Assembly (NCBI GenBank): GCA_964409645.1
Contig: CAYPEK010000008.1
Span: 2,355-66,354 of the forward strand
Direction: 5' to 3'
Length of the DNA: 64,000 nucleotides
Origin: an uncultured bacterium
Lineage (GTDB): Bacteria > UBP15 > UBA6099
The notes beneath the pieces are model-generated. The model was not told the DNA's origin and did not search any database. It worked only from the letters and a program-made list of their open reading frames with translations. Both the position numbers and the translations under genes were made by a program. Positions 3,610 through 45,819 of the stretch are shown in pieces; position 1 is the stretch's first letter, and each line of letters starts with the position of its first letter.

Positions 3610-6486
3610 TCAGAAAGGCGGCTTAGCAGGAAATTCGAGGTTCTTCGCCGCATAGAATCTCTTCGTCCACGACGGAAGCTCGGTTTTCTGGAGCATCTCC
3701 CGCCATTCCTCGTCGTTGATTATCTCTTTGTTGACCATGTCGTAATACGAATATACGACGCCTTTTGTCACCTGTCGTCTGCCGTGGAACGGGAGCAGCA
3801 GGTCCCACTCCGTCGGCAGCCCCACCGCCGCGTGCAGATAATCGATCTGAGCCTTGCCGCCGCCTGCTATATCGACTATCTTCGACACCGGGTCCGGGTT
3901 CGAGATTGTAAATTCGTCATTCGCGAGGCTTTTGAAGACGAGGAAGTTGTGCTCCGCCGATCCGCCGACGTGCAGTATCATGTCGTATTCCGCGGGAGTC
4001 AGTTTTTTGCCCTCTATCTGTTTGATAGCCATCTTCCTGAAAGTGAGAATCGAGTCGCGGGTGTCCTTGAGCCGTCGTGTCAGTCCGGCCCGCAGACTGT
4101 CCGTGTCCAACTCGCCATCATCTAAATAATATTTCGACTCCTTATCCAATTTCTTTTTGTCATTCGGCAACAACTCGCCTACGAGGGCTATTTCCATGTC
4201 CACGAGGCCCGCTATGGCCTTGAAAGTCGCCGGGTCCGGCTCGACCGCGCCCAGAGGCGGCTTGTACCATATCGGCTCGAAGCCGCCTTCGCCCGCCTCC
4301 GCCGCGGACCGCTCATTCACCAGCACGGTCGCGTGCCTGAGTGTCGCCCAGCTTGCAAGGCCGGTCTGTAGCCGTTTCGTGCCCCACATCTCCCGGCTCG
4401 CGGAGCCCTCCGGCGCCGCCGTGTCCGCCCATTGCGTGCCGAGCGCTTCGAGCCACGCGTCGTAAATCCCGCGCGAGTCGCCGCTTTTCTTTCCCCATCG
4501 CTTTTCGAGATCGGCGGTCACGGCCGCAAGGTTCGGAAATTCCTTGTACACTCCGCTGTTCTTCAGAATCTCTTTGGCAATCGGGCTGCCGAGCACCGCT
4601 GGAAAATCGAAGGAAGTCGGAAGCATTCTACCAATTTGTTCATTGTCGGGCCAATCTTCATGGTAAACGACCGAGTTGAGCACCTCGTTGTCGAAACCCC
4701 AGCTCAACGGAAAAATCCGGACGCCGCCTATCTGGTGCTTGATATAGTCCGGCTTTACATAATTCTCCGGTGTCCATACAAGGTCGTACCGCGAGGGCGC
4801 GATGAAGTTCAGATATGGTTTGATAAATGCGAAAGCTTCCTGCCGCAGCTCGACCGGCATCCCGCGCAAGGCCTTCATTTCGTCATCGGTGAAATTTATC
4901 GACGACAGATAGCGCAGCGACCTGAAATGCAGCCCCAGCTTTTCGGATTTTGTGTAGTGTCCGCGCGGTTTCAGGTCTTCATACTCGTACCTGACTCCGA
5001 GTACGTCGGACTCCGCGTATCCGTCCGCCGCCATTATTCTTTTCACTTCCGGATTGTTCGATTTCGGATTCGAATTGAGTTCTTTGAGCGTGTCGAATAT
5101 TTTGCAGAGTCTGCCGGTGCAGCGGTCTTTGTTCAAGTAATCCGCCGAGTCGTTTATGAATTTCCGTAGCGCGGGGATCGCCTCGCGCCGCTCAACCACC
5201 TGAAAAATGCCTTCATACGAAGCCGCGAACACTTCCCAGAACACGTCGGTTGTCACCAAGTACGGCCGCGTGGGAACCCGGCTGTCGTACTCGCCGGTGT
5301 AAGATTCGGAGTCGTACAGGTAACACAACTGTTCGTATTCGGTCCGCCTGAATGCGCCGCCGTCACTGTTCAGCAGCTTGAGATCGTCTTTCCCCGTAAC
5401 GAACATCCACGCGTTCGCCACGTCGGCGAGCGGGGTCGGGACCGGCTCATATACAAGGCTTTCCGCGCCGCCCGTGCCGCGCGTCACGCCGATCAGCCCG
5501 CGTCCGTCCGCCGTCCACTCCGGTTTGAGCGCGAAACTTATGTTTTCAGCCGCCTGTTTCCTGCCGTAGTCGGGATGGTAGTATAAATCGACGCCTTTCT
5601 GTCCCACGCGCCAAGCCGAAAAACCGATCCCGTTCGGCGTGAATGATATTGCCGATCCGCAAACCGCGTTGACTTTGCTTTTTCCGGGCGCGGTCCAGTC
5701 GGACCAGTCATATTTAATCATACCGACGCACTTTTTTCCGTCTTCAAAAAACAGTTCGTCTCCGGAGACGTGAAATCCGACCGGGACCGACGATGCGGCC
5801 TTGAACACTTCATGCTCTTCGGACTTGTGTATCTTCTTAAGTTTTGCTCCGGCCGGCGCCGTCACGTCGTAAGGCGCTTTGCCGTACTCGCTCAACGTCC
5901 TGATTCCGTATCCGTGGCCCGGGTACTCGACTCCGAAATAAATCCGCCGCCATGCGCCGCTCTCGTGCTTGCTGGTTTTCTTATCGTCCGCCTGATCCCA
6001 TCTTGTCGTGTACAAACTGAATATTGATGTGCTGACCACGAGATTCTTCAACTTCTCGCCAGTCGAATACAATTTCTTCCAATTGGGTGTTTTCGAAGCC
6101 GCGCCGCGCCATATCGCGCTTTTGCCGCCGGATTTGCCGAGCAGAAAAACGTCTTTGCCGTCAGGATGCCACGCGACCGCGGTGAACGAATCGCCGCCTT
6201 TCGGGGGTGCGAGCTTCACCGCCGCTTTTCCGGTGAATCCCATCAGGGCGATGCCGTGCGAGTTTCCTTTTTTGTACACGACAAGCGCCTCCGGCGCGAC
6301 CGGCGAAACGGCGAGCGCAACCGTTTTCGCGCCCGACTCGATAGGCGCGGTCTTCGCCTTTACCGGTGATCGCGTAACATCCAGTATCTCATAACCCTCG
6401 TATTCGAAACAGAATGCCGTCGTTGTAATAAATAAGGCGGCAAGTGCGGCGAGGAACGATGTCATCAGGGAAATCGGCTTGTTCAT
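3610..6486 (-). CDS. Exported DUF3160-family protein with an N-terminal beta-propeller/TolB-like region
   Basis: Start reassigned to ATG 6486 (GGAGG RBS, signal peptide MNKPISL...TTAFC). DUF3160-like motifs PYLVTTDVFW and KRLQTGLASWATLRHATVL; propeller-like AWHPDGK and EWTADGR. Confidence 0.8.
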   Translation of the reverse strand: MNKPISLMTSFLAALAALFITTTAFCFEYEGYEILDVTRSPVKAKTAPIESGAKTVALAVSPVAPEALVVYKKGNSHGIALMGFTGKAAVKLAPPKGGDSFTAVAWHPDGKDVFLLGKSGGKSAIWRGAASKTPNWKKLYSTGEKLKNLVVSTSIFSLYTTRWDQADDKKTSKHESGAWRRIYFGVEYPGHGYGIRTLSEYGKAPYDVTAPAGAKLKKIHKSEEHEVFKAASSVPVGFHVSGDELFFEDGKKCVGMIKYDWSDWTAPGKSKVNAVCGSAISFTPNGIGFSAWRVGQKGVDLYYHPDYGRKQAAENISFALKPEWTADGRGLIGVTRGTGGAESLVYEPVPTPLADVANAWMFVTGKDDLKLLNSDGGAFRRTEYEQLCYLYDSESYTGEYDSRVPTRPYLVTTDVFWEVFAASYEGIFQVVERREAIPALRKFINDSADYLNKDRCTGRLCKIFDTLKELNSNPKSNNPEVKRIMAADGYAESDVLGVRYEYEDLKPRGHYTKSEKLGLHFRSLRYLSSINFTDDEMKALRGMPVELRQEAFAFIKPYLNFIAPSRYDLVWTPENYVKPDYIKHQIGGVRIFPLSWGFDNEVLNSVVYHEDWPDNEQIGRMLPTSFDFPAVLGSPIAKEILKNSGVYKEFPNLAAVTADLEKRWGKKSGDSRGIYDAWLEALGTQWADTAAPEGSASREMWGTKRLQTGLASWATLRHATVLVNERSAAEAGEGGFEPIWYKPPLGAVEPDPATFKAIAGLVDMEIALVGELLPNDKKKLDKESKYYLDDGELDTDSLRAGLTRRLKDTRDSILTFRKMAIKQIEGKKLTPAEYDMILHVGGSAEHNFLVFKSLANDEFTISNPDPVSKIVDIAGGGKAQIDYLHAAVGLPTEWDLLLPFHGRRQVTKGVVYSYYDMVNKEIINDEEWREMLQKTELPSWTKRFYAAKNLEFPAKPPF

Positions 6487-6627: not shown

Positions 6628-7056
6628 ATGACGATCAGGCCGATGAGGATGGAAGATTACGACGGAGTAGTGGACGTGTGGCGGCGGGCGGGGCTGGACT
6701 TCAAACCGACGGGCCGCGAGAGCCGCGAGTCGGTCGAAAAGCAGCTCGCGCACTTCCCCGGAACGATGCTTGTCGCCGAAAACGACGGGAGGATCGTCGG
6801 TGTCGCGTTCGGCACACACGACTACCGCAAGGGCTGGATCAACCGGCTATCGGTCGCGCCGGAGGCGCAGGGCGGGGGAGTCGCCAAGCGGTTGGTTGCC
6901 GCCATCGAAAGCGAGCTCGAACGGATCGGCGTTTTCATGCTGTCGGCGACGATCATGAGCGACAACGAAAAGTCTAAATCCCTAGCCGGAAAATCCGGAT
7001 ACACGCACCATGGCAACGTAAGTTACTTCTCGAAAAAACTGCGCGATGACTGGTAA
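6628..7056 (+). CDS. GNAT family N-acetyltransferase
   Basis: MTIRPMRMEDY start; WINRLSVAPEAQGGGVAKRLV acetyl-CoA motif A. Confidence 0.9.
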   Translation: MTIRPMRMEDYDGVVDVWRRAGLDFKPTGRESRESVEKQLAHFPGTMLVAENDGRIVGVAFGTHDYRKGWINRLSVAPEAQGGGVAKRLVAAIESELERIGVFMLSATIMSDNEKSKSLAGKSGYTHHGNVSYFSKKLRDDW

Positions 7057-7068
7057 GCGCCAGTAGTG

Positions 7069-8529
7069 CTACCGGCGGCTGTTCTGGAAGTATGATTCGC
7101 AATTTTTCTGAAGCGGCTCTGAGAATTCTGCTGCAGAGAAGCCGAACCCGTTCCAGTGATACATATCCGTTCTTGTATTATCCGCGCCGACGCCGGGGGC
7201 AAGGAACGTGTCGCCCCGGTGAAATGCGCAGAGGGCGCAGCCGTTGCCGCATAAAACTGTGGCGTCGATGAGCGGCCGTGCGAGCGCCGAGCCGCGCCAG
7301 AGCGCGACGAGTTTCTTATCCGTGACCCGATAAACGTGCGGTCTGGGCGCAATCTCGTTGTCGATGTCGGAAAAATGCTCCTCGATTGAGACGAGTTCCG
7401 GGACACTGTCACCATCGAGATCGCCTGCCGAGACGGAATCGAGAACGCAGCCATTCGACTCCCACAGTTTCTTTCCATTTTTGTATCCGGCAATCGCCGT
7501 TTTTCCACCGGGCCTGCTGACGCCTTTCAACGTCACACCTTTGAAATCGGGCAGTTTATTCATCGGAAACGCAAACTTTTTACCGCCCGCATTTTGAGAA
7601 TTGGCAACCGGAAAGTATGTGCCGCCCGGGACGTGTGTTGCGATACCGTGACACGTGATGTTTCGCGAAATGGCGTCGGCTTCACACACCACGGCGAGCC
7701 CGCGCTTCGTTACGTCGTATTTCTGGTCGAACAGGTTGTTGCCGAGCGAATAAAAAACGGGATTGCCGCCGACTTCGCCCGGTTCGATCACGACATGTGG
7801 ATGGCTGCCGATGATGGCGTCCGCGCCTGCGGTGAACAGTTTCCGCGCGACTTCGTTCATCTTCTCATCCGGCCAGTCGCGAAGCTCGATGCCCCAATGA
7901 ATGAAGACGAAAACCGCATCCGAGAGGGCGGCAGCAAGTCGCACGCGCCGAATTACCGGCTGCCATTCCATGTCGTCGTCAATTACGACATCGCCGCCCG
8001 TGAGATCGAGCGGAACCACCGATATAGTGACACCGTCCGCGGTTTTGAACCACGGCGATTCGTTGAAAACGAGCGAGTCAACGCCGTTCTTAGCGAGAAG
8101 AGCGGCGGTTTTGGATTTGCCGGCGGCGCCGGTGTCTGTCGAATGGTTGTTTTCGAGCGACATCGCGGTGAAGCTGGCCTTGCGGAGGAGCTTTAGCCGT
8201 TCGGGTTTAATGTGGAAACACAAGTTAGCGGGGATTCCGGCGCGGCAGTCGGATTTGCCGCCGGCCGCGCCTTCGAGATTGCCGATGACGGCGTCCGCGC
8301 CGAAGAACAGTTTTTTCATACCGGCCCACGGATTGCTGTCGGGCGATTTGCTTATCTGCGACTCGACCAGCCGGGAAAGAAGGACGTCGCCGACAAAAAC
8401 AATTTTCATTTTTTGCGGCTGCGTTCTTTTCGTCCCCTCGCCCGTAGCGCAGACCACAACCGCCATAAGGACAGCGAAAGCCGCAACGGCGAGCAGCGTT
8501 CTCTTCTTTTGGCTCAACTGTTTGCACAT
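7069..8529 (-). CDS. CapA (PGA_cap) family metallophosphoesterase with C-terminal extension
   Basis: GDVLL, GNLE, LENNH, IHWG, GSHPHV and YSLGN motifs; N-terminal membrane anchor; GDLDGDSVPELV Ca-loop-like motif in the extension. Start could be GTG 8550. Confidence 0.85.
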   Translation of the reverse strand: MCKQLSQKKRTLLAVAAFAVLMAVVVCATGEGTKRTQPQKMKIVFVGDVLLSRLVESQISKSPDSNPWAGMKKLFFGADAVIGNLEGAAGGKSDCRAGIPANLCFHIKPERLKLLRKASFTAMSLENNHSTDTGAAGKSKTAALLAKNGVDSLVFNESPWFKTADGVTISVVPLDLTGGDVVIDDDMEWQPVIRRVRLAAALSDAVFVFIHWGIELRDWPDEKMNEVARKLFTAGADAIIGSHPHVVIEPGEVGGNPVFYSLGNNLFDQKYDVTKRGLAVVCEADAISRNITCHGIATHVPGGTYFPVANSQNAGGKKFAFPMNKLPDFKGVTLKGVSRPGGKTAIAGYKNGKKLWESNGCVLDSVSAGDLDGDSVPELVSIEEHFSDIDNEIAPRPHVYRVTDKKLVALWRGSALARPLIDATVLCGNGCALCAFHRGDTFLAPGVGADNTRTDMYHWNGFGFSAAEFSEPLQKNCESYFQNSRR

Positions 8530-8590
8530 TATATGTTCCAAGAATACCACACCTGCGGGAATGACAAAATGAAGGCTATAAATAAAAGAA

Positions 8591-8628
8591 GGGACAGGCT
8601 CGCGGGGGGAGTGTGCGATACCTGTCCC
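8591..8628. repeat. GGGACAGG...CCTGTCCC palindromic element (family E)
   Basis: 8-bp perfect arms at 8591-8598 and 8621-8628; a related element GGGACTGGCA...TGCCTGTCCC lies at 50583-50619. Confidence 0.55.
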
Positions 8629-8671
8629 TGTCTTTTCAGGCTTAAGGCCTGTTCCACTTACTTCCTTAATA

Positions 8672-11600
8672 TCAATCGCTACAGGTTTTCGTCGAGCAGC
8701 AGGCGGGAATGGGCGCTTTGCTCGAACAGAGCACCGCGCTGCTGACGTCGTAAACGCTGTCGATTTTGGAACCGTAGGAATCCTTCATGGCAAGTATGTC
8801 CGTCAGGTTGATGGTGCCGTCGTTATTGAAGTCCGCCCAAGCGCGGTAGCATGTTTCGCCGGATTTCGCGCCGTAGGCGTTTTTGATCGCCATAATGTCC
8901 TGAAGGTTGACTGAGCTGTCGCAGTTCGGGTTACCTGCGTCGCCGCCGCCGTTTCCTGAGGCACCCGGCAGATCGAGCACGTTCACAGTGATTGAATTGG
9001 CGGTGGACGGAAGGGTGACTGCCTTTTTGAGAGTAACGTAGCAGTAATCGGTCGTTTTGGATGTGCAAGCGACCGGACTCGAACTCACCGGCATTCTGAG
9101 TCTCACAGTGTAAGTGACGCTCGAAGCTCCGATGGGCGCTTTCATGTCCGGTGGTTTGCCGACGTTGTCGGTACTGACTGTCGAAATAACCGTGTCTGGT
9201 GAAGATGTCTGAACCAACTCGATCCTTGTGTCGGTAAGAGCGGTGTATGTATAAGTTGCTTTGGTCTTCATGCAGTCGGTAGTCGAAGCGCATTGCGGAT
9301 CGGCAATCGAGTAGTATCTGATTTCGCCGTTCGTGCCTTTCCCATTCACTTTGACGGTGTTCGGACAGTCGGTGCAGGTGTTCGGTTTGATGTGAATTTT
9401 GCCGCCGGTGGATGAGGGCAGGGTGGAAACTGTTTTAGCCGATTCGCCGGATGTGGCGTTCGCATACGAAACCCACACGTAATAATCGCTTTCGTTGATC
9501 GAAAGGGACGCGAGGTCCGTTCCTGTTTTTATATAGTCCGTGCCGGCCTGCTGTATGACGGATGTGTTGATTTTTTTGAACGTGTCGGTGCATGAAGCTT
9601 CGACGTTGTATTTACAGAGGTAGAGATTGTAGCCTTCGCCGGAGTCATACGCGCTGTCGTCATCGGCCGATGCTACCCAGTTGACTTTCAGGCCGTACTG
9701 GGAGTCGTATTCGTAGGCGGAGACGGCGCCGGGGGATTTGAGTGTCGGCCCTTCCGAACAGGTGAAGCAGTTGGCGAGGTCGGACGCGTTGTATTTATCG
9801 CTGATGTTTCCGGCGAGGTCTTTTGCGGTTATGCAGTAAGAATATTTTTTGGACGAAGTGGTTTCCACTTGGTCCGTGTATTCGGTGTCGATGAGCTCGG
9901 CTGCGTCGTCGAGCAATTCGAAATCGGATGCGGAATCACACTGCGACATGTCGCCCTCGCATCTGTAAACCGAATACGAAATTGTGTCTTTGTCGCTGAC
10001 GGCTGCCCATTTCACGATGTTTCCGCCCTCTTCGGAGCTATAGAAGGAGTTCTCCGTGTCCGCGACCGGTTTCGCTGGCGGCAGAGTGTCCGCCGGGACG
10101 CACTCGACCGGGTCGGGCGTGTCAGGATCGCGGGAGACATTGCCGGCGGCGTCGTATCCGTAAACGCGGTAGCAATATATGGTGCTGTTTGTCAAACTTG
10201 TGTCCGTATAATTAGGAGTTGTCATAGCGTTAAGAGTTGCAACGGGCGTTCCGCCGTCTTTGGGCGAAGTGATTGTCGTTTTCGAGCAGTCGTTGTTAAC
10301 AGCGGGGGCGCGCATGACGTAGTATCCCGATAATTTGAACGGGTCGGGATTGTTGCAGTCGGCGAAAGTTCCTTCGCTATCTTCTCCCGTGCAGATTTTG
10401 TTCCATTCGAGCTTGCACTTGTTGCCTTCAACCGGCGGGGTTGTCTTGATCTCTTTGCCGTCGGACTGGTTTTCGGGCCATCTGGGCGCAAGCGTGTCTG
10501 TGGGGATCATTATCGGGCCGCATTTCAGGTATGTGGTCATAGTGTCGAAATTGCTGCAATTCGGTGAGGTTTTTCCCGGGCACGTGCCGACAGTTGTGCA
10601 GTTGTCGCATGCCTCGACGTAGAGGCACCAAATGTCGCCTTCGTTTTTGAAGCCGGATGTGACAGAGCAGGAGAGAGTTTCCGGCGTGCTTGGGTCGTTC
10701 TTCGTGCAGAGGACGGCGTATCCGTTGGTTGTTGCTGTTTCTTCTTTTGTATCGCAGGAGCCGGGTTTCGCGAGATCGTCGAAACAGCCGTAGAGATTGT
10801 ACGTTGCGGCGTCGATGTCGGAGACAGGTTGCCAAGTAGCATTTATACCGAGTTGGGTCATGTTGTAAGTAATGCTGAGAGTGTCGGGTTTGGAGGGCGA
10901 CTTGAGGTCCTGTGGCGTGCAGGATACGGTCGTCCAGCCCGATTCGTTGTTGCCGACATCGATGGCCTGAATCGAGTAGGAATAAGAGAAGCCGTTTGTG
11001 AGCGCGCTGTCGTTGTCGGTGAACTGTTCTCCGAGAATTATGGCGCCGTTGAGCTGTGAGTTGTCGCGCTTGATGTTGTAACCGTAGAGGCTGGGGTCGG
11101 ACGTGTCCGGAGACCAAGTGCAGAAGCATTTGCTTTCGCTGCCGTCGGGTGTGGAACAGGATGCGCCCGTCGGCGCGGCGGGCGGCATCCAGTCTTCCAC
11201 ACGGCACGGAGCCGTGGTTGCTGACCAGTCTTTCTGAGCGGTTTCGAGGCCGGTTTTGCCGACGCTCGAAAAGAAGAAGTAATGTTTGCTTCCGTCCAGC
11301 GATGCCTGAGGAACGGTGTAAGTGACGGAGTTCGAACTTGTGAGGTTGGTTGTGATGTCGAGATCGGAAAGATATACGGCGGTTGCGGCGTTGTTGGTCG
11401 TGTTGTGATAGACCTTGTATTTCGATACTGAGCTTGCGTCCGGCGATGAGTAGATGTCGATGATGCACTGATTGTTGTCCGGGATGGCGGAGCTCTTGAC
11501 GCACTCGGGCGCATCGCCTGTGCCGTTTGCTTTGCACGTTGTGCTTTTGAACAGCGGCGCCGCAGGGACGGTTACTTCATCGACAACTTTGGCTTCTTTC

Positions 11601-34184: not shown

Positions 34185-34754
34185 ATGCCGGACAGAGATG
34201 TAAAGACTGTTAAGGATCAGATATTTTTTCAGTACGCGAAGATTATTGCCTGCAGCGCTTTCGGATTTGAGAACGGCAGCATTGCCAAGAAGGAACAGTA
34301 CGGTTTTATAAAGAAGCGATTCAGGATGCTGCAGTCGGGCGAGATTTCGTGGTCCGATATCCTGCGGGAAGACAAACAACTGGTGGACGCTGAAAAGAAG
34401 TGCGTGTACTGTGGCGCGGCGGATGATCTTTCATGGGAGCATATCGTTCCGAAGTCGCTGAAGATCAAGCCGGAATGCGGGGATTGCGACGCGATCCAGA
34501 GTATTCACAATCACGTGTGGGCTTGCAGGCGATGCAACTCATCGAAAGGGAATCGCGGGCTGTACGCGTTTTATCAGTCCATGATGCCGAAAGAGAAGTA
34601 TTACGATTTTCTGCCGGCGCTGGTGGAGAAGAAGTACCTGAAGACGATTTACCAATGCCATGTATGCGCAGGCACGCTGGATTCGCCGGATGCTGACGGC
34701 AACGGGAAGATGGATGTGCTGGATGTGGATTTTGCCGTGGCGAATTTCATCTGA
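34185..34754 (+). CDS. HNH endonuclease with Zn-binding CxxC motifs and a C-terminal EF-hand-like loop
   Basis: CVYCG...EHIVPKS...NHVWACRRCNSSKG; extra CGDC and CHVC; DADGNGKMDVLD near the C-terminus. Confidence 0.85.
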   Translation: MPDRDVKTVKDQIFFQYAKIIACSAFGFENGSIAKKEQYGFIKKRFRMLQSGEISWSDILREDKQLVDAEKKCVYCGAADDLSWEHIVPKSLKIKPECGDCDAIQSIHNHVWACRRCNSSKGNRGLYAFYQSMMPKEKYYDFLPALVEKKYLKTIYQCHVCAGTLDSPDADGNGKMDVLDVDFAVANFI

Positions 34755-38582: not shown

Positions 38583-40835
38583 TTATTTCCCGCCGGATGA
38601 GCTCAGTGCGACGTATTTTTTATAGGCGCTGAGCGCTTCGTCTTTCTTGCCGAGTTTTTCGTAGCACTCGGCGAGCGCTTTGTATCCCTGAGCATATTTC
38701 GGGTTGAGCGCGACGGCTTTTTTGAAGTCGTTGACGGCGTTCTTGCAGTCGCCTTTTCCGGCGGTGAGGCGGCCGCGAGCCATGTAGGCGGCCTCGTTCT
38801 TTGGGTTGAGCTGGATGGCCTTCGCGATGTCTTTGGCGGCTTGCGCGGCGTCTCCTTTTTTGCGATGCACTTCGGAGAGGGCGACGTAGGCGTCGATGTA
38901 GTCCGGCTTCAGTTCGATTGCTTTGCTGAGGCTTTTTGCCGCGCTGCCGAAGTCCTCGCGTTTCGAGTACGCGACGCCGCGGAAGTAGTAAGCGTCGGCG
39001 TTGTTCGGGTCGCCTTGGACTGCGGTGTCGAGGTCGATGATTGCTTTGTCGAAGTCGCCTTTTTCGAAATGTGCGCGTCCGCGGTAGGTGTAATTGTCGT
39101 AGTTTTCGGGTTTAAGCTCGATTGCCTTGTCGAGGTTTTCAATCGCCTTGTCGAAGTCGCCTTTTTCGAGTTGGATACGCCCGATGTAGTGGAACGGGGT
39201 ATCGGTGTCGGGGTTGTCTTCCGCGGATTTCTGGAAAGATGACATGGCGCCGTCGTAGTCTTTGTTTTTGAATTTGCAGATGCCGATGCTGTCGTAGAAA
39301 GGTTTTGTCGTCGGGTCGAGGCTTTGGACAACGGTGTAGTCCGCTTCGGCGGCGGCGCAGTCGCCTTTTCCGGCGAGGATGGTTGCGCGTGTGATGTAAG
39401 CGATATGGTCGGTGGTGCCGGCGCTGATGGCTTTGTTGAGGTCTTCGAGTGCTTTATCGGTGTCGCCGGTTGCCATGAGCACTGCCGCGCGGGCGGCGGT
39501 GGCTTCGGGGTAGTCCGGTCTGAGTTCAATCGCCTTGTCGTAGTCGGCGAGTGCTTTGTCGTACATGTACCTGAGGAAGTAGTTATTGCCTCGGTCATAG
39601 TAGAGGTAACTGTCGTTGGGGCTGAGCTCGATCGCTTTGTCGAAGTCGGCGGCGGCGGTTTCGAAATCGCCTTTGACTTTGTATGCGAGCCCGCGATAGT
39701 TGTATGTCATGCTCGAGGTCTGATCCATCTCGATGGCTTTATTCAGGTCTTCGATGGCTTTGTCGGTTTCGTTCGAATAGAGGTATGCGTTGCCGCGCAG
39801 AGAATATGCGAGCGCGATGTTGATGCCCAAGTCTATCGCCTGAGTGAGGTCGGCGATGGTGTTGGGGTAGTCGTTTTTCATGCTGTAGATGCTGCCGCGG
39901 CCGAGGTAATCCATGGCTGTGCCGGAGCCGAGGTCGATCACTTTCGTATAGTCGGCGATGGCGCCGTCGTAGTCCATCTTCAGCAGCCGGATTCCGGCGC
40001 GGTCTTCGAGTGCGGGGGTGTACGTTGAGTCGGTTTCTATTGCCTTGTCGAGGTCGGCGAGTTCGTTTGCGTAGTCGCCTTTGTATTTATAGATGCCCGC
40101 CCGGTAGTAGTAATACCTTGCGGTGTACGGGCTGAGGCTGATGGCGGAGGAGTAGTCGGCGAGCGCGTTGTCGTAGTCGCCTTTTGTCGAATAAGAGATT
40201 GCTCGAAGGATATAAACCGTGGCGTCGCTTTTCAGGCTGAGCGCGTAGGTGAAATCGGATATCGCGCTGTCGTCGTCGCCTTTGTAGGCGTAGCAGTTAC
40301 CGCGGTTGATGTATGCGTCGGGGTAGTAGGGCTTCAGGCTGATGGCCTGAGTAAAGTCCGAGATGGCGGCGTCGTAACTCTTCATGTTCATTTCGGAGTT
40401 GCCGCGATTGTAGTAGGTGTCCGCGTTTCCCGGTTCGTATGTGATCGCTCTGGAAAAATAATCTATGGACTGAACGTAGTCGCCTTTTTTGTTGTATGAG
40501 TAACCGAGCCCGAACAGGGCGGACGAGTTGGCGGAGTTGTACGAGAGCGCGGTGTTGAAATCGGAGATGGCGGAATCGTAGTAGTCCATGCGGTTGTAAG
40601 CGAGGCCGCGGTTGGAGTACATGAAAGAGATGTTTTCGTAGGTTTCGCCGGATGAGTAGCTTGTGATCGCCTGAGTGTAGAGGTCGGCGGAGTCCGAGAA
40701 TCGGCCTTCGGTGTAGGCGGTCATGCCGAGGTCGAAGCAGTTTTGTGAGCTGTAGCAGTACTCCGCGAGCGCTGCCCGGCCGGCCGCGAGCGAAATCGCG
40801 ATAGCGAATATTGAGAGTATTTTTCGAAGTTTCAT
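38583..40835 (-). CDS. Exported all-TPR protein (750 aa, about 20 repeats)
   Basis: Signal peptide followed by continuous 34-aa Y..RG..Y...GDYD.AI.D...AI.L.P repeats. Confidence 0.92.
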   Translation of the reverse strand: MKLRKILSIFAIAISLAAGRAALAEYCYSSQNCFDLGMTAYTEGRFSDSADLYTQAITSYSSGETYENISFMYSNRGLAYNRMDYYDSAISDFNTALSYNSANSSALFGLGYSYNKKGDYVQSIDYFSRAITYEPGNADTYYNRGNSEMNMKSYDAAISDFTQAISLKPYYPDAYINRGNCYAYKGDDDSAISDFTYALSLKSDATVYILRAISYSTKGDYDNALADYSSAISLSPYTARYYYYRAGIYKYKGDYANELADLDKAIETDSTYTPALEDRAGIRLLKMDYDGAIADYTKVIDLGSGTAMDYLGRGSIYSMKNDYPNTIADLTQAIDLGINIALAYSLRGNAYLYSNETDKAIEDLNKAIEMDQTSSMTYNYRGLAYKVKGDFETAAADFDKAIELSPNDSYLYYDRGNNYFLRYMYDKALADYDKAIELRPDYPEATAARAAVLMATGDTDKALEDLNKAISAGTTDHIAYITRATILAGKGDCAAAEADYTVVQSLDPTTKPFYDSIGICKFKNKDYDGAMSSFQKSAEDNPDTDTPFHYIGRIQLEKGDFDKAIENLDKAIELKPENYDNYTYRGRAHFEKGDFDKAIIDLDTAVQGDPNNADAYYFRGVAYSKREDFGSAAKSLSKAIELKPDYIDAYVALSEVHRKKGDAAQAAKDIAKAIQLNPKNEAAYMARGRLTAGKGDCKNAVNDFKKAVALNPKYAQGYKALAECYEKLGKKDEALSAYKKYVALSSSGGK

Positions 40836-41166
40836 TTTCGTTCTCCGTTGTGAGCGCGCAAGCGCTTTTCCCAGAAGTTGTCACTGCACAAGATGTTTCT
40901 CTTGGATGGATTATAAGGCGTTTGAAAGCGAAAGTGAATGAGCGTAACTTTTTAGGCCGAAAAACAAACAAGGCAGATGGCGGCGCGGCAGATAGAAAAG
41001 ATAAAACAAGGATATCAAAGCATTTGCCGGAGTGCGCGCGACTTGGCGCTGCTGAGGAAGCCGCCTTTTAGACAAGCAATAGCTAAAAAGCTCTGAGGCT
41101 TGACCCTCAAGATAAAAAGATTAATAAGGTAAATGAGAAAAGCAGGTGAAGAACTGGAGGGGGAAA

Positions 41167-41517
41167 ATGGGAAAAGCAGGGGAGATATTGAAGAATAGAA
41201 TCGAAAATCGGAAGCGGTTGGAAAGCGAAGCGCCCGATCTGTTCAACGGTTTCAACGAGATGATGAAATATTACTATAAGCACGGCGCTCTCGACAGGAA
41301 ATACAAGGAACTGATGGCGGTGACCGCGGCAGTCGCAACGAGATGCATCCCGTGTCTCGCGAATCATGCCAACAACGCCATGTCGGCGGGCGCTACAAGG
41401 CAGGAAATATTCGAAGCGGCGGCAATCGGCGTCGAATTCGGCGGTGGGCCTTCTTTTGTCGCCGTCAGAGATGAACTTCCGGGCTTCCTTGATGAGATCG
41501 AAGCACAGAAGAGTTGA
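41167..41517 (+). CDS. Carboxymuconolactone decarboxylase/AhpD family protein
   Basis: GALDRKYKELMAV...RCIPCLANH...AGATRQEI (CxxC-H); GGAGGGG RBS. Confidence 0.9.
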   Translation: MGKAGEILKNRIENRKRLESEAPDLFNGFNEMMKYYYKHGALDRKYKELMAVTAAVATRCIPCLANHANNAMSAGATRQEIFEAAAIGVEFGGGPSFVAVRDELPGFLDEIEAQKS

Positions 41518-41592
41518 TTTTGATGCTGCTTCAAAATTGAATGAGGCGGGACGCCTGTATGGCATTCGCCGTGATTCGTTTTTTCATTCGTA

Positions 41593-41635
41593 ACGTGACC
41601 GCTTGCTGACGCTCGTGGCTCGGATTCGCTTCGCT
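41593..41635 (-). repeat. REP-like family A copy at the edge of the AT-rich insert
   Basis: Reverse complement AGCGAAGCGAATCCGAGCCACGAGCGTCAGCAAGCGGTCACGT. Confidence 0.8.
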
Positions 41636-41735
41636 TATTAAAAACAGCGCCATTTGACACAGGAATTATGTTGTGTAAATTAAATTAAAACTATGAATTT
41701 AAGTACCCCGGCTTGGCCAAGAGTATCTATAGAAA

Positions 41736-42503
41736 TTATGCTGCGAGTTCATTTCTTATGTCTTCTCTATGACTCCATTGGATAGGTTTAATGTTGTAGC
41801 TTTTGAGCGCGGCAATAACATCTGTTGGGACGCTTTTTTCTGAGTCATTTAAAATCGCGTATGCCATAGAGTCATCCGGTCTGACTTCTTTTGTGTCAAA
41901 CCATGCCCACATGAATGTCTGTGCCATCTCACGACTTGGCCTGTTGATTGCCCTAATGATTCGTTCAGGTTGTTTATTTGGAGTTTTAGGAATTACAAAA
42001 TCAAATAGATGATCATAACCTGTCTTGCCTGTGAATTTCGCTTTTGGTGTGAATCTAATTTCGTGAGTGTTTAACCAAGCCTCAACGTCTTCATAAAATA
42101 ATCTTTTAATAACAGGTTCAGCAAGATAAAACATATCATTAACTGCCAATATGGCTTGGATAAGATTATGTTTTCTAAGGGCGAAGTTATCTGAGGAAGC
42201 TTGAACTTGGAGTGCATTTCTATCATTTTGGACGCCGAAGCCATTCAAAGTTACTTTAAGAAGCTGTTGTCTTTTGGGGCTGTCGAGTTTGCATCCGGAA
42301 TGTAAAAGGTCCGTAATTGTGTATCCATCATCTGTTAATATGAATCCTCCATTTTGTTTATGCGCATAAATTTGTATATAGTCATTATGCCTATCTAAAT
42401 AAGGCGTTGTTATTTCTATCCAATCTTGAACTTCTCTTAAAGAAGTCTTATCTCGGAGCCACTCTATATACTGATCAAGAAGATGTCGAATTTCGTCTAT
42501 CAT
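41736..42503 (-). CDS. DUF1828 + DUF1829 domain protein (C-terminal restriction-endonuclease-like region)
   Basis: [17 protein letters not shown]...LTDDGYT (DUF1828-like); [15 protein letters not shown] (DUF1829-like); ATGA overlap with the upstream gene; AT-rich coding sequence. Confidence 0.8.
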
Positions 42504-42949
42504 GAAAAAAGGCCTCTTTGGATTCTTGGCTGAATTGTTATATTGCAAAAATCCATGAATTGATAAAGTGTTTTTTGTATATCATCCATGTCCGTAAACT
42601 TATCAACGGGAATGGGGTTTGCCCATTTATCTCCAAATCCTTCTCGGTAAATATGGATGTGTGGCACGCTTATTTCTCTGCCATCCGGATTTCTGTGTGG
42701 AGGTCCGCCAAGGTCTAATCTAACAAGCGAAACCACTTGGCGTGCTCTGTTTTGATAAGATACTTTTTGTAAATCAATGCGGCTCCGACCGATATCCAAT
42801 ATAAAATACTCTCTCTTGTCTGTAGATATAAGAGGAACAGATAGAGATTCACCGGGAACAGGAAAAGAATAATTATTATTATCAATACGGTGCTTCTCCA
42901 TAGCAATGAGCATTTCGGCTTCTGCTTGATTAAGATTAACTTCGGTCAC
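42500..42949 (-). CDS. DUF6978-like protein with a His-rich motif
   Basis: [16 protein letters not shown]...[15 protein letters not shown] motif; GTG start; translationally coupled to the DUF1828/1829 gene. Confidence 0.7.
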
Positions 42950-43144
42950 AATAGTTACACTCCGAGATTGCTATAAAGTTATAGGTGTTAGCAAAAACCA
43001 CATAATCAATCCAACTCTATATTACTTTATTATAACATCCCATAATCATCAATTGCTTATTCTGTCATAAATCATGTCCATCCTAAATTGACAATGCAGA
43101 TCATTAAATGCTACTCAAATGTTCATATAATGATGACCAAATAT

Positions 43145-43175
43145 AAAAGGGCGGGTTTTGAGGCCCGCCCTTTTT
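43145..43175. terminator. Bidirectional terminator (duplicate of 44561-44591)
   Basis: AAAAGGGCGGG-ttttgagg-CCCGCCCTTTT. Confidence 0.85.
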
Positions 43176-43196
43176 ATTGTTGCTTTTGCGCTAATC

Positions 43197-43274
43197 TTAT
43201 CTGCCGAAGATTCCGATGCTGCAAACGCTCATGGCGGGGAAGCCGCCGAGGTTGTGCGCCAGCGCGAGGTTGTC
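43197..43274 (-). pseudogene. Detached 3' end (about 25 codons) of a thiolase gene
   Basis: Encodes DNLALAHNLGGFPAMSVCSIGIFGR*, against DKLALTHNLGGFPAMSVCSIGIFGR* in the intact thiolase ending at 44614. Confidence 0.85.
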
Positions 43275-43439
43275 TTGGGCACACGGCTTTTCCGTTTTGC
43301 AGTTCAAACACGCGCTTGATATAATTGATAAATGGCAAGGCCATTCGGGGTGGGGAATGAAATCAATGGACAAATCGCAAAGCACTATACCCGACTCGGA
43401 ACTTCCCGACATGTTAAGATCATCCTGCGAGGACAAAAT

Positions 43440-44540
43440 ATGATAGCTGCGCAGCTTGTGCCTAAGCGGACATTCGGTAATACCGGCGTGAAGATATCTA
43501 AGCTCTGTCTTGGCGGCGGGTCTTTCGGGAACTCCGACGGTCAGGCTTTGCTCGATGAAGCTCTGAAGTATGGCGTGGATTGCTGGGAGGTCGTATCGTT
43601 TACCGGAAAAGTATATGGCGAATATTTCAAAAAACATTCCGATATGCGTGAGAAGATATTTTTGACGGGGAAAGTGCATTTTACGGATCCGGCTGCGATG
43701 GAGAAGCAACTGGATGATATGCTCGTTGAAAACGAAACATCTGTTATCGACTTTCTCGCTGTGCATGTGCTGGACAATACCGAGGTGCTTACAAACGATA
43801 TTCGGAAATGGGTGGAGAAGCTGAAAAAGGAAAAGAAAATTCGTTTTTTCGGGTTCTGTACCCACAAAAATATGGACAGATGCCTTTCCAACGCCGCCGA
43901 TCTTGGTTGGATAGACGGTGTTCATACTGTTTATAGTTACAGGATGCAATGTGTCAAAAGTATGGAAGACGCTTTTCATAAATGTTACGAAAAAGGTGTC
44001 GGGATATTCGCTGTTAAGTCGATGGGGCTGACCGTTCTGAGGAAAACGGAACGGCAACCTGATGAAGAGAAATTAGATGCGGCTTTATCCGGCCACAATA
44101 TAACATTTGAGCAGGCGAAGCTGATGTCGATCTGGCAAAATCCCGCTTTGACATCGATCTGCTCTCTCATGTCGAGCCCGGAGATCGTTCAATCCAATGC
44201 CTCGGCGGCGGTGAATGAGGCTGCGCTCGATGCGGAGGTTCAAAAACTGCTTTCGGATTATGCCGACAGCACTTCAAAGTATTTCTGCCGTCGCTGCGAT
44301 CAGTGCGAAGCGGCAAATGCTGATAAAGTTCCTATCTTTGATATTATGGAATTGCTTATGTATTCAAGAGGATATGCTCGAATGGAAATGATCGCAAAAA
44401 AGTTCATGCAGATACCTGTTGAGGTCAGAAACAGGATGAGTCACAGCGATTATTCGGTTGCTGAAAAGATGTGCCCGCAGAAAATGCCTATAGGGCAGCT
44501 AATGAAGGAAGCCTGTGATGAGTTCACCACCCATTCGTGA
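43440..44540 (+). CDS. Aldo/keto reductase with C-terminal Fe-S-type Cys motifs
   Basis: PKRTFGNTGVKISKLCLG, KIRFFGFCTH and IFAVKSM motifs; FCRRCDQC and KMCPQKMPI. More AT-rich than the flanking genes. Confidence 0.88.
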   Translation: MIAAQLVPKRTFGNTGVKISKLCLGGGSFGNSDGQALLDEALKYGVDCWEVVSFTGKVYGEYFKKHSDMREKIFLTGKVHFTDPAAMEKQLDDMLVENETSVIDFLAVHVLDNTEVLTNDIRKWVEKLKKEKKIRFFGFCTHKNMDRCLSNAADLGWIDGVHTVYSYRMQCVKSMEDAFHKCYEKGVGIFAVKSMGLTVLRKTERQPDEEKLDAALSGHNITFEQAKLMSIWQNPALTSICSLMSSPEIVQSNASAAVNEAALDAEVQKLLSDYADSTSKYFCRRCDQCEAANADKVPIFDIMELLMYSRGYARMEMIAKKFMQIPVEVRNRMSHSDYSVAEKMCPQKMPIGQLMKEACDEFTTHS

Positions 44541-44560
44541 GCGCGTTTTTTGGAGATGAA

Positions 44561-44591
44561 AAAAGGGCGGGTTTTGAGGCCCGCCCTTTTT
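44561..44591. terminator. Bidirectional terminator between the thiolase and aldo/keto reductase genes
   Basis: AAAAGGGCGGG-ttttgagg-CCCGCCCTTTT. Confidence 0.85.
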
Positions 44592-44613
44592 GATTGTTGC
44601 TTTTGCGCTAATC

Positions 44614-45819
44614 TTATCTGCCGAATATTCCGATGCTGCACACGCTCATTGCGGGGAAGCCGCCGAGGTTGTGCGTGAGTGCGAGTTTATCCGGATATTT
44701 GATCTTCCGTTCTTCCGGCACTCTGCCGAGTATCTGCAGGTAGCACTCGTAGATCATGCGGATGCCCGACGCGCCGATGGGGTGGCCGAAGCATTTCAGG
44801 CCGCCGTCCGGCTGGCAGGGCACTTCGCCCTTGAGGTCGTAGAAGCCGGCGTCGATGTCTTCCTTCGCTTTGCCGACGGGAGATATCTGCAGGTCTTCAT
44901 ACGTCGCGAGCTCGGTGATGGAGAAGCAGTCGTGGACTTCCATCATGCCGATTTCTTCGCGCGGGTTTTTGACGCCCGCTTCGGCGTACGCGCGTTTTCC
45001 GGCTTCGCGGGTCGGCATTACGTATGTGCCGTCCCAGTCGGTGTAGAGGAGTTCTTCGCCCGACGTGCAGGCGATCTGGAGCGCCTTGACGCGGATGAAG
45101 TCGTCGCCTTTGAGCTTCTTGGCGATTTCGGGTGTTGTGACAATCGCACAGGCGGCGCCGTCGCTGACGCCGCAGCAGTCGAAGAGTCCGAGCGGCTCGG
45201 CGATGATCGGGGCTTTCATGATCTGCTCGACGGTGGCCGCTTTGCGGAGGTGCGCTTTAGGGTTGAGCGCGCCGTTGGCGTGGCTCTTCGCGGAGATTTT
45301 CGCGAGTGTCGTTTTGCCTTCGTCGCGGGAGAGTCCGTACTTGTCGAAGTAGCGTGTTGCCATCATCGCGAATCCGCCGGGGGCGGTGATGTTGGCGAGA
45401 ATCATTCGGTTGCGGGTGCCCATGGCCTGACCGAAATCGGGAAGGCCGCCGTAGCCGGTGTCTTTGAGTTTTTCGACGCCCATCGCGAGCGCGATATCGA
45501 CTGCGCCGGAAGCGACCGCATAGACGGCGCCGCGGAACGATTCAGTACCGCTGGCGCAGAAGTTTTCGACGCGGCTGCAGGGGATGAACGGGAGTTTGAG
45601 CGCGAGCGAGATCGGGATCGCGGATTTTCCGACGTTGATCTCCTCGAAGCAGACGCCCATCCACGCCGCCTGAATGTCTTTCTTTTCGATGCCGGCGTCC
45701 TTGATGCATTCGGCGAACGCTTCCACCATCAGGTCGTCGGCGCCTTTGTCCCAGTGCTCGCCGAACTTGGTGCAGCCCATTCCGATAACTGCAACTTTAT
45801 CTCTGATACCTTCAGCCAT
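44614..45819 (-). CDS. SCP2/archaeal-type thiolase (acetyl-CoA acetyltransferase)
   Basis: VENFCASG catalytic Cys, EVHDCFS, GHPIGASG and HNLGG motifs. Confidence 0.92.
   Translation of the reverse strand: MAEGIRDKVAVIGMGCTKFGEHWDKGADDLMVEAFAECIKDAGIEKKDIQAAWMGVCFEEINVGKSAIPISLALKLPFIPCSRVENFCASGTESFRGAVYAVASGAVDIALAMGVEKLKDTGYGGLPDFGQAMGTRNRMILANITAPGGFAMMATRYFDKYGLSRDEGKTTLAKISAKSHANGALNPKAHLRKAATVEQIMKAPIIAEPLGLFDCCGVSDGAACAIVTTPEIAKKLKGDDFIRVKALQIACTSGEELLYTDWDGTYVMPTREAGKRAYAEAGVKNPREEIGMMEVHDCFSITELATYEDLQISPVGKAKEDIDAGFYDLKGEVPCQPDGGLKCFGHPIGASGIRMIYECYLQILGRVPEERKIKYPDKLALTHNLGGFPAMSVCSIGIFGR

Follow-up and report, generated by a model that had tools for sequence, protein, structure and literature searches.

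A stand-alone copy of the phage-defense candidate PDC-M24 in an AT-rich islet of an uncultured UBP15 bacterium

Behind a thiolase gene of an uncultured bacterium (GTDB lineage Bacteria; UBP15; UBA6099), two small genes occupy DNA that differs sharply in composition from its surroundings, raising the questions of what this gene pair is, how it came to lie there, and which of its two products would act as the effector. The pair, consisting of gene A (DUF6978) and gene B (DUF1828 and DUF1829), spans positions 41736 to 42949 of the 64,000-nucleotide stretch analyzed here (GenBank assembly GCA_964409645.1, contig CAYPEK010000008.1, positions 2,355 to 66,354; hereafter, the window), where the open reading frame (ORF) listing and the sequence agree on two ORFs running in the same direction on the minus strand. 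A preliminary description, made from the letters alone, had proposed a horizontally acquired defense module comprising a sensor or small enzyme and a nuclease effector, and could not confirm a match to any named system.

The gene pair is a copy of the PADLOC cassette PDC-M24

A search with the PADLOC models supplies the missing identification. Protein A matches model PDLC04538 (E = 2.6e-58) over residues 5-148 of its 149 residues, with four more PDC-M24A models matching as well, and protein B matches model PDLC04539 (E = 3.5e-105) over residues 4-255 of 255, both thus being assigned to the phage-defense candidate (PDC) PDC-M24; no other system in PADLOC-DB v2 was matched by either protein. The gene order, strand and overlap of the pair are identical to those of PDC-M24, and the matches to the hidden Markov models are nearly end to end. 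It is near certain that the gene pair is an intact, horizontally acquired, stand-alone copy of this cassette, set just behind a thiolase terminator. PDC candidates are cassettes embedded in BREX, DISARM and type I restriction systems, 145 of which, untested, were put in PADLOC (Payne et al. 2024, bioRxiv 10.1101/2024.01.29.577857); the supplementary table of that work lists PDC-M24 as cassette CAS_00098, with the composition FAM_00129>>FAM_00065. Whereas the family was defined from embedded copies, the copy in the window stands alone, and no HsdR or HsdS was found in its genome. In the window, the pair is not nested in a BREX, DISARM or type I restriction system; such nesting led to the discovery of the family, and a PADLOC assignment does not require it. 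Beyond PADLOC, B matches phrog_5059 (E = 4e-74), and neither protein matched NCBIfam. A literature search for the name PDC-M24 found no paper, and DUF6978, DUF1828 and DUF1829 were met there in passing mentions only, except for DUF1829 in the DefensePredictor system DS-6/HipAD, to which we return below.

The two genes are joined as first described. Positions 42509-42500 of the minus strand read TTTTTCATGA, in which the start of B overlaps the stop of A, and this ATGA overlap, read directly at 42503-42500, translationally couples A and B. The start of B is ATG rather than TTG, because the homologs begin at MI(D/Q)EI; a 270-aa ORF with a TTG start, listed for B, is over-extended. Upstream, GGAG lies 10 nt ahead of the GTG start of A, and a simple sigma-70 scan of the minus strand of the leader (42950-43144) found no promoter-like site. 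Both ORFs are intact in the window, with every conserved residue kept; the copy is real and foreign and, judging from the sequence comparisons, probably functional.

Foreign DNA in an exchangeable slot

The composition of the islet, 1.5 kb in size, sets it apart: the GC content is 0.33-0.41 over positions ~41600-43250 vs. 0.53-0.65 in the flanks, and the GC content at third codon positions (GC3) is 0.31 in A and 0.32 in B vs. 0.68-0.82 in the neighboring genes, both measures confirming the markedly AT-rich DNA noted at the outset. On the left boundary lies a copy of a repetitive extragenic palindrome (REP)-type repeat, with at least 12 further copies, 84-92% identical, in the same genome. On the right is a genuine, strong bidirectional terminator hairpin that forms part of a 130-nt direct repeat (43145-43274 and 44562-44691), so that the duplicated terminator of the preliminary description is indeed present.

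Comparison with related DNA is consistent with this picture. Four genomes of the same family retain the thiolase and HMGS-like genes, with the thiolase 83-90% identical at the amino acid level, and the module was not found behind the thiolase in any of these four; two other members of the family have a diverged pair of their own, located elsewhere. Together with the foreign composition and homologs of 60-70% identity across many phyla, this absence from the site upholds the proposed horizontal acquisition. Positions 40107-43575 of the window are matched at 100% identity by a contig from a metagenome (L121). In a contig of a sister strain (L237), the 3' end of the thiolase gene, 99.1% identical to that in the window, directly abuts the module, a single copy of the terminator element joining the thiolase gene straight to it, and the similarity to the window stops at 41618, within the REP copy. 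The module itself is 91.6% identical between the two (synonymous divergence, dS, ~0.21-0.24), and the leader at 42950-43144 is conserved together with it at 91.6%. Thus, near-identical hosts carry different cassette alleles in the slot that follows the thiolase terminator, as expected of exchangeable accessory DNA. Between the two alleles, A has a ratio of nonsynonymous to synonymous divergence (dN/dS) of 0.24 and B one of 0.067, indicating that both genes are under purifying selection and that A evolves faster.

The immediate neighbors of the pair are a CMD-family gene, an aldo/keto-reductase-like (AKR) gene and the thiolase gene. The AKR-like gene (43332-44540), with its flanking 130-nt repeats (43145-44691 in the window), is missing from the sister contig (176-2146). 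Because the thiolase gene there runs directly into the module, the AKR gene represents a polymorphism of its own, an insertion or deletion that occurred through the 130-nt repeat and is distinct from the event that brought in the module.

The pair stands outside any defense island in this window: a PADLOC scan of the 21 surrounding proteins gave only scattered weak single matches. Elsewhere in the window, a solo HNH protein (34185-34754) matches Pfam HNH_5 and, weakly (E ~6e-7), the models of Septu PtuB and PDC-M01B; no partner gene was seen beside it. The genome, which is 95% complete, contains one copy of the pair and no match to HsdR_N or HsdS in searches that matched in 8 of 14 control genomes.

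A widespread and tightly linked pair

Thousands of homologs with 60-70% identity occur in very different phyla, and two exact peptide patterns from B were found in at least 581 species of a one-genome-per-species collection. We assessed the pairing of the two genes in two sets of loci drawn from different collections and each ordered by how well the protein used for selection scored, namely, the best 80 loci selected with B and 80 metagenome loci selected with A. A lies immediately upstream of B, its end coinciding with the start of B, in 72 of the 80 B-selected loci. Of the A-selected loci, 64 have a full-length B and 2 a B whose alignment extends to residue 244 of 255; in 13 the contig end truncates B, and in the remaining one an IS3-family transposase disrupts it. 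Among 401 sampled genomes, 10 contain DUF1829 and 11 contain DUF6978; both occur in the same 10 genomes, adjacent wherever they are on one contig, and the eleventh genome with DUF6978 carries a divergent pair of A-like and B-like genes. Within the same B-selected loci, the identity of B is 64-69% vs. 50-64% for A. Longer homologs of A carry DUF6978 alone or in combination with DUF1828, and such fusions hint that A and B may interact.

Degenerate copies were encountered as well. One locus (L120; G281:C1:503833-507171) contains a degenerate A-like gene with two in-frame stops, paired with a B-like gene right after an ABC-ATPase-like gene, and the same genome also has a PDC-M24 copy with an in-frame TAG in A.

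Relatives in restriction operons and prophage lysogeny modules

Type I restriction genes are present in the available flank of 46 of the 80 B-selected loci. Their usual order is hsdM..hsdS..A-B..hsdR on one strand, and in no fewer than nine loci hsdR begins where B stops. For about 40% of the loci, the flanking sequence at hand contains no restriction genes. The closest relative from outside the strain, L241, whose B is 78% identical, likewise has the pair embedded in a restriction operon, with hsdR overlapping the stop of B. Homologs of B at 25-35% identity were found, in addition, in 18 phage records, prophages of Staphylococcus, Streptococcus and lactobacilli among them, and in 11 plasmids. 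In particular, prophage Lj965 of Lactobacillus and phage Javan642 of Streptococcus each encode a pair of which both proteins match PDC-M24 models, with the genes arranged in the order repressor-A-B-integrase on the strand of the repressor; the Lj965 pair, furthermore, adjoins an annotated superinfection-exclusion gene. The interval between repressor and integrase in prophages and contexts of this kind are classic sites of defense genes. The suggestion that the pair is a defense module finds its support in these relatives, in restriction operons and lysogeny modules, but not in the surroundings of the window copy, which include no defense island.

The slot between hsdS and hsdR is also the one in which prrC, encoding an anticodon nuclease, is embedded in the type Ic EcoprrI operon (the prr locus). 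One could accordingly imagine the pair as a PrrC-like guard of type I restriction that the restriction complex keeps latent until an anti-restriction protein of a phage inactivates that complex and so sets the guard free, in which case the copy in the window would be an orphan. The shared slot, the common strand in the 46 restriction-embedded loci, and the overlap of hsdR with the stop of B, in at least nine loci and in L241, would all suit this possibility. Yet no homology links the pair to PrrC or RloC, lysogeny modules of prophages are among its locations, and about 40% of the loci show no restriction genes in the flank that is available. Moreover, the window copy is intact and under purifying selection in a 95%-complete genome without a match to HsdR_N or HsdS, which shows that a guard role is not obligatory, and we consider this explanation quite improbable.

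A separate observation concerns a type I restriction operon of Thermodesulfobacteriota (L096), in which a 740-aa protein is encoded between hsdS and PDC-M24A (7040-9262). Neither Pfam nor PADLOC models match this protein; on visual inspection, a Glu/Lys-rich stretch resembling a coiled coil, followed by hydrophobic segments, seems to make up its C-terminal part, and a 52%-identical relative is found in another locus (L068).

Protein B has a predicted nuclease fold

Pfam assigns residues 33-121 of B to DUF1828 (E = 2.8e-28) and residues 159-246 to DUF1829 (E = 5.6e-31), with a long helix (residues 107-146) between the two domains. The AlphaFold model of B (pLDDT 87.9) has VC1899 (E = 6.4e-4, probability 1.0) and Card1 (E to 1e-3, probability ~1.0) as its top Foldseek matches, followed by R2 RLE domains, NucS, Cdn1, Kpn2I, Lassa L endonuclease, MspJI, McrC and XPF, and the match to XisH has a TM-score of 0.61, normalized to the target. 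The E-values of these nuclease-fold matches are modest, from 6e-4 to 0.16. The order of secondary-structure elements over residues 107-242 fits the PD-(D/E)xK core, alpha-beta-beta-beta-alpha-beta, and the Pfam clan CL0236 (PDDEXK) includes DUF1829 (PF08862), according to the supplement of PMC13092281. In the predicted model, the C-terminal DUF1829 domain is a PD-(D/E)xK-type fold, and the nuclease fold initially suggested for the downstream protein is borne out, with match probabilities up to 1.0. The motif that had prompted the suggestion is also real (F.G.TG..H.FDF, residues 157-169), albeit located at the start of DUF1829 and not, as described, at the end of the protein. No solved structure in the PDB was matched by B at the sequence level, with either the single sequence or a profile.

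The active site is another matter. In an alignment of 58 B sequences, one subfamily of ~40% identity included, the invariant or near-invariant residues are E138, D139, D164, H165, D168, K173, R181 and N187. The position on the third strand where the (D/E)xK signature is expected reads, however, E/Q180-R181-I/V182, with residue 180 being E in 31 and Q in 25 sequences. Because the classical triad is thus not evident, nuclease activity of B is only plausible, as far as the model goes. The basic C-domain (pI 9.3) would fit nucleic-acid binding. Prompted by the matches to Card1 and VC1899, we considered a CARF-like fold for DUF1828 and rejected it, as the four consecutive strands after the helix form a meander and are not Rossmann-like.

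Protein A combines a conserved site with a fold lacking known relatives

DUF6978 is the sole Pfam match of A (E = 1.7e-46). Across an alignment of 87 diverse homologs, K19, N87, P88 and H99 are invariant, and R68, R77, H85, D89, H97 and Y101 are at least 90% conserved. The His-rich motif spotted earlier in the upstream protein (RLD..PHRNPDG..PHIH) holds the most conserved residues of the family, and this site looks like a catalytic or metal-binding one, judging by its pattern of conservation. The AlphaFold model of A is confident (pLDDT 93, pTM 0.86) and consists of an N-terminal helix (residues 8-16), a C-terminal helix (residues 124-134) and nine short strands that form a sheet. Foldseek found no match for this model in the PDB (best E = 0.37) or in BFVD (best E = 0.04, an uncharacterized siphovirus protein), and sequence and profile searches of the PDB recovered no solved relative. 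An HNH/His-Me or HIT fold, which the HxN..HxH motif might bring to mind, is not supported, because Foldseek gave no match better than E = 0.04 in either database. The polymorphic-toxin domain Ntox24 (PF15529) weakly matches 6 of the 87 A homologs (P0243-P0391; best E = 0.0031), all below the gathering score, and no Ntox24 sequences were found among the 401 genomes. The pI values of A and B were not discriminating.

Repeated loss of the A core with retention of B

The two genes are not lost symmetrically. Twelve of the 80 B-selected loci lack an intact A (Table 1), and at least eight independent lineages have lost the A core, by deletions that left in-frame fusions to B, a mini-ORF or a fusion with part of another candidate. 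In one of these cases, the remnant of A is joined to part of PDC-M02B, another PADLOC candidate, with a normal length of about 380 aa. B lacks its own ribosome-binding site, so these deletions are of the kind that keeps it translated. B is full length in the A-less loci, and in 10 of the 12 none of the 27 conserved residues that were checked has changed; the dN/dS of B between species sharing one A deletion is 0.12 and 0.09, compared with 0.095 between intact pairs. Intact, translated and constrained where A is missing, B does not need A to activate it. Two simple models fail on this evidence, namely, that B is a constitutive toxin needing A as its antitoxin and that B is an inert effector needing A for activation. 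The repeated loss of the A core, with B kept translated and constrained, may be a new result.

This pattern bears directly on the division of labor originally proposed, in which A is a sensor, activator or small signal-making enzyme and B is a nuclease effector that fires only with A. Such an arrangement would sit well with the nuclease fold of B and its invariant D164, D168, K173, E138 and D139, with the faster evolution of A, as sensors tend to show, and with signal activation of Card1 and VC1899, the nucleases whose folds match best over the full length. It predicts, however, that B should decay in the A-less loci, where instead B persists intact under purifying selection (dN/dS ~0.1), with its conserved residues kept and its translation preserved. 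In addition, the strand order of DUF1828 is not CARF or Rossmann-like, and structure searches show no resemblance of A to any known cyclase or signal synthase. The original assignment of roles is not sustained, and we regard it as distinctly unlikely.

The same loci weigh on the possibility that the pair has no anti-phage role and is either a plain addiction or stabilization module, the variant with A as the antitoxin and B as the toxin included, or a passenger of mobile DNA in decay. The layout is that of a generic type II toxin-antitoxin system, bicistronic with overlapping genes on mobile DNA; the pair is present on prophages and plasmids; and the islet lies between metabolic genes without defense neighbors. 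But A as an essential antitoxin is contradicted by the A-less loci with an intact, constrained B, decay by the intact ORFs and dN/dS of 0.07-0.24, and the strong embedding of the relatives in restriction operons and lysogeny modules points to defense. This explanation appears very doubtful.

A tentative model with A as the effector

The reading we favor, with a probability of roughly 0.45, is that the pair is a toxin-partner module acting by abortive infection, in which A is a conditionally harmful effector and B its controlling partner. A, a small protein with an invariant His/Asn/Asp site, would act as the effector; B would bind and control A, would probably bind nucleic acid, and would have selective value by itself. 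Infection would free or arm A, and in the restriction-embedded copies, interference with the restriction enzyme would do so. We infer the identity of the effector, its toxicity and the protection against phages, leaning to A because of the asymmetric loss of A, its catalytic-looking site, and the precedent of HipAD/DS-6 described below.

Several observations weigh against this assignment. B is more conserved than A (64-69% vs. 50-64% identity; dN/dS 0.067 vs. 0.24), and in toxin-antitoxin pairs, the toxin is usually the more conserved partner. The many invariant acidic and basic residues of B in a nuclease fold would suit an effector, the kinship of A with the toxin TumE lacks statistical support (hhalign E = 0.06 and 0.3, probability <1%), and the window has no defense island. 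The converse loss, with A intact and B broken, occurs once among 67 assessable A-selected loci: in L141, an IS3-family transposase (4638-5549) interrupts B at about residue 54 with A intact upstream, the sole such case. The asymmetry itself has to be read with the caveat that the A-less lineages are partly related, several belonging to Latescibacterota, and that the A- and B-selected sets come from different collections. Finally, the source paper lists the PDC candidates as untested (bioRxiv 10.1101/2024.01.29.577857).

Some of the same evidence would be explained if B were an autonomous nuclease, either type IV-restriction-like or of the Abi type, with DUF1828 as a reader or oligomerization domain attached to the PD-(D/E)xK domain and with A as an accessory that is optional, evolves faster, adjusts specificity or regulation, and has often been lost. 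B is intact and under purifying selection without A, is more highly conserved than A, resembles MspJI, McrC, Kpn2I and NucS in the Foldseek comparison, and adjoins hsdR in restriction operons, in keeping with type IV enzymes adjoining hsd genes, for instance, in the immigration-control region of Escherichia coli. On the other hand, A and B are nearly always together and translationally coupled, an invariant catalytic-looking site would be unusual for an optional accessory, and the canonical (D/E)xK is not conserved in B (E in 31 and Q in 25 sequences at position 180, followed by R and I/V). We view an autonomous B as unlikely. The favored model, of A as the effector and B as its controller, and the alternatives make different predictions for experiments: the stand-alone copy, the sister allele and the loss of A indicate which single-gene constructs should be toxic or harmless.

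Features of the locus and of the A-less relatives

Table 1. Coordinates of the PDC-M24 pair and its boundaries in the window, and rearrangements of A in related loci
Feature	Locus	Coordinates	Strand	Remarks
Gene A (PDC-M24A)	window	42500..42949	-	149 aa, DUF6978, GTG start
Gene B (PDC-M24B)	window	41736..42503	-	255 aa, DUF1828+DUF1829, ATG start
ATGA overlap, stop of A/start of B	window	42500..42503	-	read directly in sequence
AT-rich leader with putative promoter, upstream of A	window	42950..43144	-	GC ~0.33
Weak terminator-like hairpin	window	41647..41660	-	76 nt past stop of B; 5-bp stem, then T-run; consensus match only
REP-type repeat copy, left islet boundary	window	~41575..41644	.	other copies in genome
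Bidirectional terminator hairpin, right islet boundary	window	43145..43174	.	in duplicated thiolase 3' end and terminator
In-frame fusion of first 21-33 residues of A to B	L035, L073/L089, L086
53-aa mini-ORF	L091			N-terminus plus last 10 residues of A; ATGA coupling kept
N-terminal 129 residues of PDC-M02B fused in frame to last ~25 residues of A	L095	9471-10004		overlaps B start
A frameshifted	L036

Comparison with known systems

The only validated system with a DUF1829 protein is HipAD/DS-6 (DefensePredictor, Science 2026, PMC13092281), which consists of a HipA-like kinase and a DUF3037-DUF1829 protein. The HipA-type kinase toxin is the active effector, its catalytic residue being needed for defense, and the authors propose that the DUF1829 protein is a partner that binds the effector and DNA (PMC13092281). 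The pair described here is likewise made up of two genes, the second encoding a protein with DUF1829. However, the first protein is not a kinase but has DUF6978 as its only domain, and the N-terminal domain of the second is DUF1828 rather than DUF3037.

TumE, a translation-targeting toxin of the TumE-TumA superfamily (DUF6516, PF20126), is described as a small alpha+beta protein with two helices on a seven-stranded antiparallel sheet and no relative in the PDB (Durairaj et al. 2023, PMC10584680). A appears similar to it in the order of secondary-structure elements and has a comparable motif (R.D..PH..PH.H in A and R(W/Y)DNAPHH..FPHHKH in TumE). For the comparison, 27 TumE sequences were collected from the 401 genomes, with PF20126 confirmed as the TumE model. 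The hhalign alignment pairs K.sYQ..RLD..PH..PHlH of A with YSYH..RwDN.PH..PHHKH of TumE at the E-values given above, hmmsearch between the A family and TumE found nothing significant in either direction, and PF20126 matched none of the 87 A-family members. Furthermore, TumE corresponds to a different PADLOC candidate, PDC-M44B rather than PDC-M24A, and the partner proteins are unrelated. On these grounds, we rejected membership of A in the TumE family, leaving a weak resemblance. As an aside on TumE itself, one 6.5-Mb genome in the sample (G286) has 13 separate PF20126 matches, an unusual expansion.

The DUF1829 fold of B likens it to the PD-(D/E)xK superfamily, including Card1/VC1899, NucS, XisH, MspJI, McrC and R2 RLE, from which B differs in having no evident canonical (D/E)xK triad and no sequence-level match to solved structures. 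With PrrC, the pair shares the position of most PDC-M24 relatives, co-oriented between hsdS and hsdR, but there is no sequence or domain similarity, the module comprises two proteins instead of one, and the window copy has no restriction system nearby.

These comparisons allow a broader reading that is speculative and somewhat unlikely. DUF6978 might be a toxin or enzyme of a fold unseen in solved structures, possibly a very distant TumE-like RNase with a His site, and the DUF1828-DUF1829 protein might be a promiscuous nuclease-fold controller of unrelated effectors, such as DUF6978 and the HipA kinase, with a function of its own after the loss of the effector; in embedded copies, it might tie the effector to whatever state the type I restriction enzyme is in. 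If so, the pair would be a widespread second-line defense of the PrrC type.

As a further member of a catalogued candidate family, the pair in the window is of limited novelty. It nevertheless belongs to one of the most widespread of the untested defense candidates (at least 581 species, many phyla), one protein of which, A, has a confidently predicted fold without a known relative. What the window and its relatives usefully add to PDC-M24 are the stand-alone state, the replacement of alleles at one and the same site, and the recurrent loss of the A core while B is retained. An intact, selected cassette in a genome in which no HsdR or HsdS was found, a diverged sister allele and the recurrent shedding of the A core offer starting points for experiments on a candidate that, in its two-gene form with a DUF1829 protein in second place, resembles the validated HipAD/DS-6 system.

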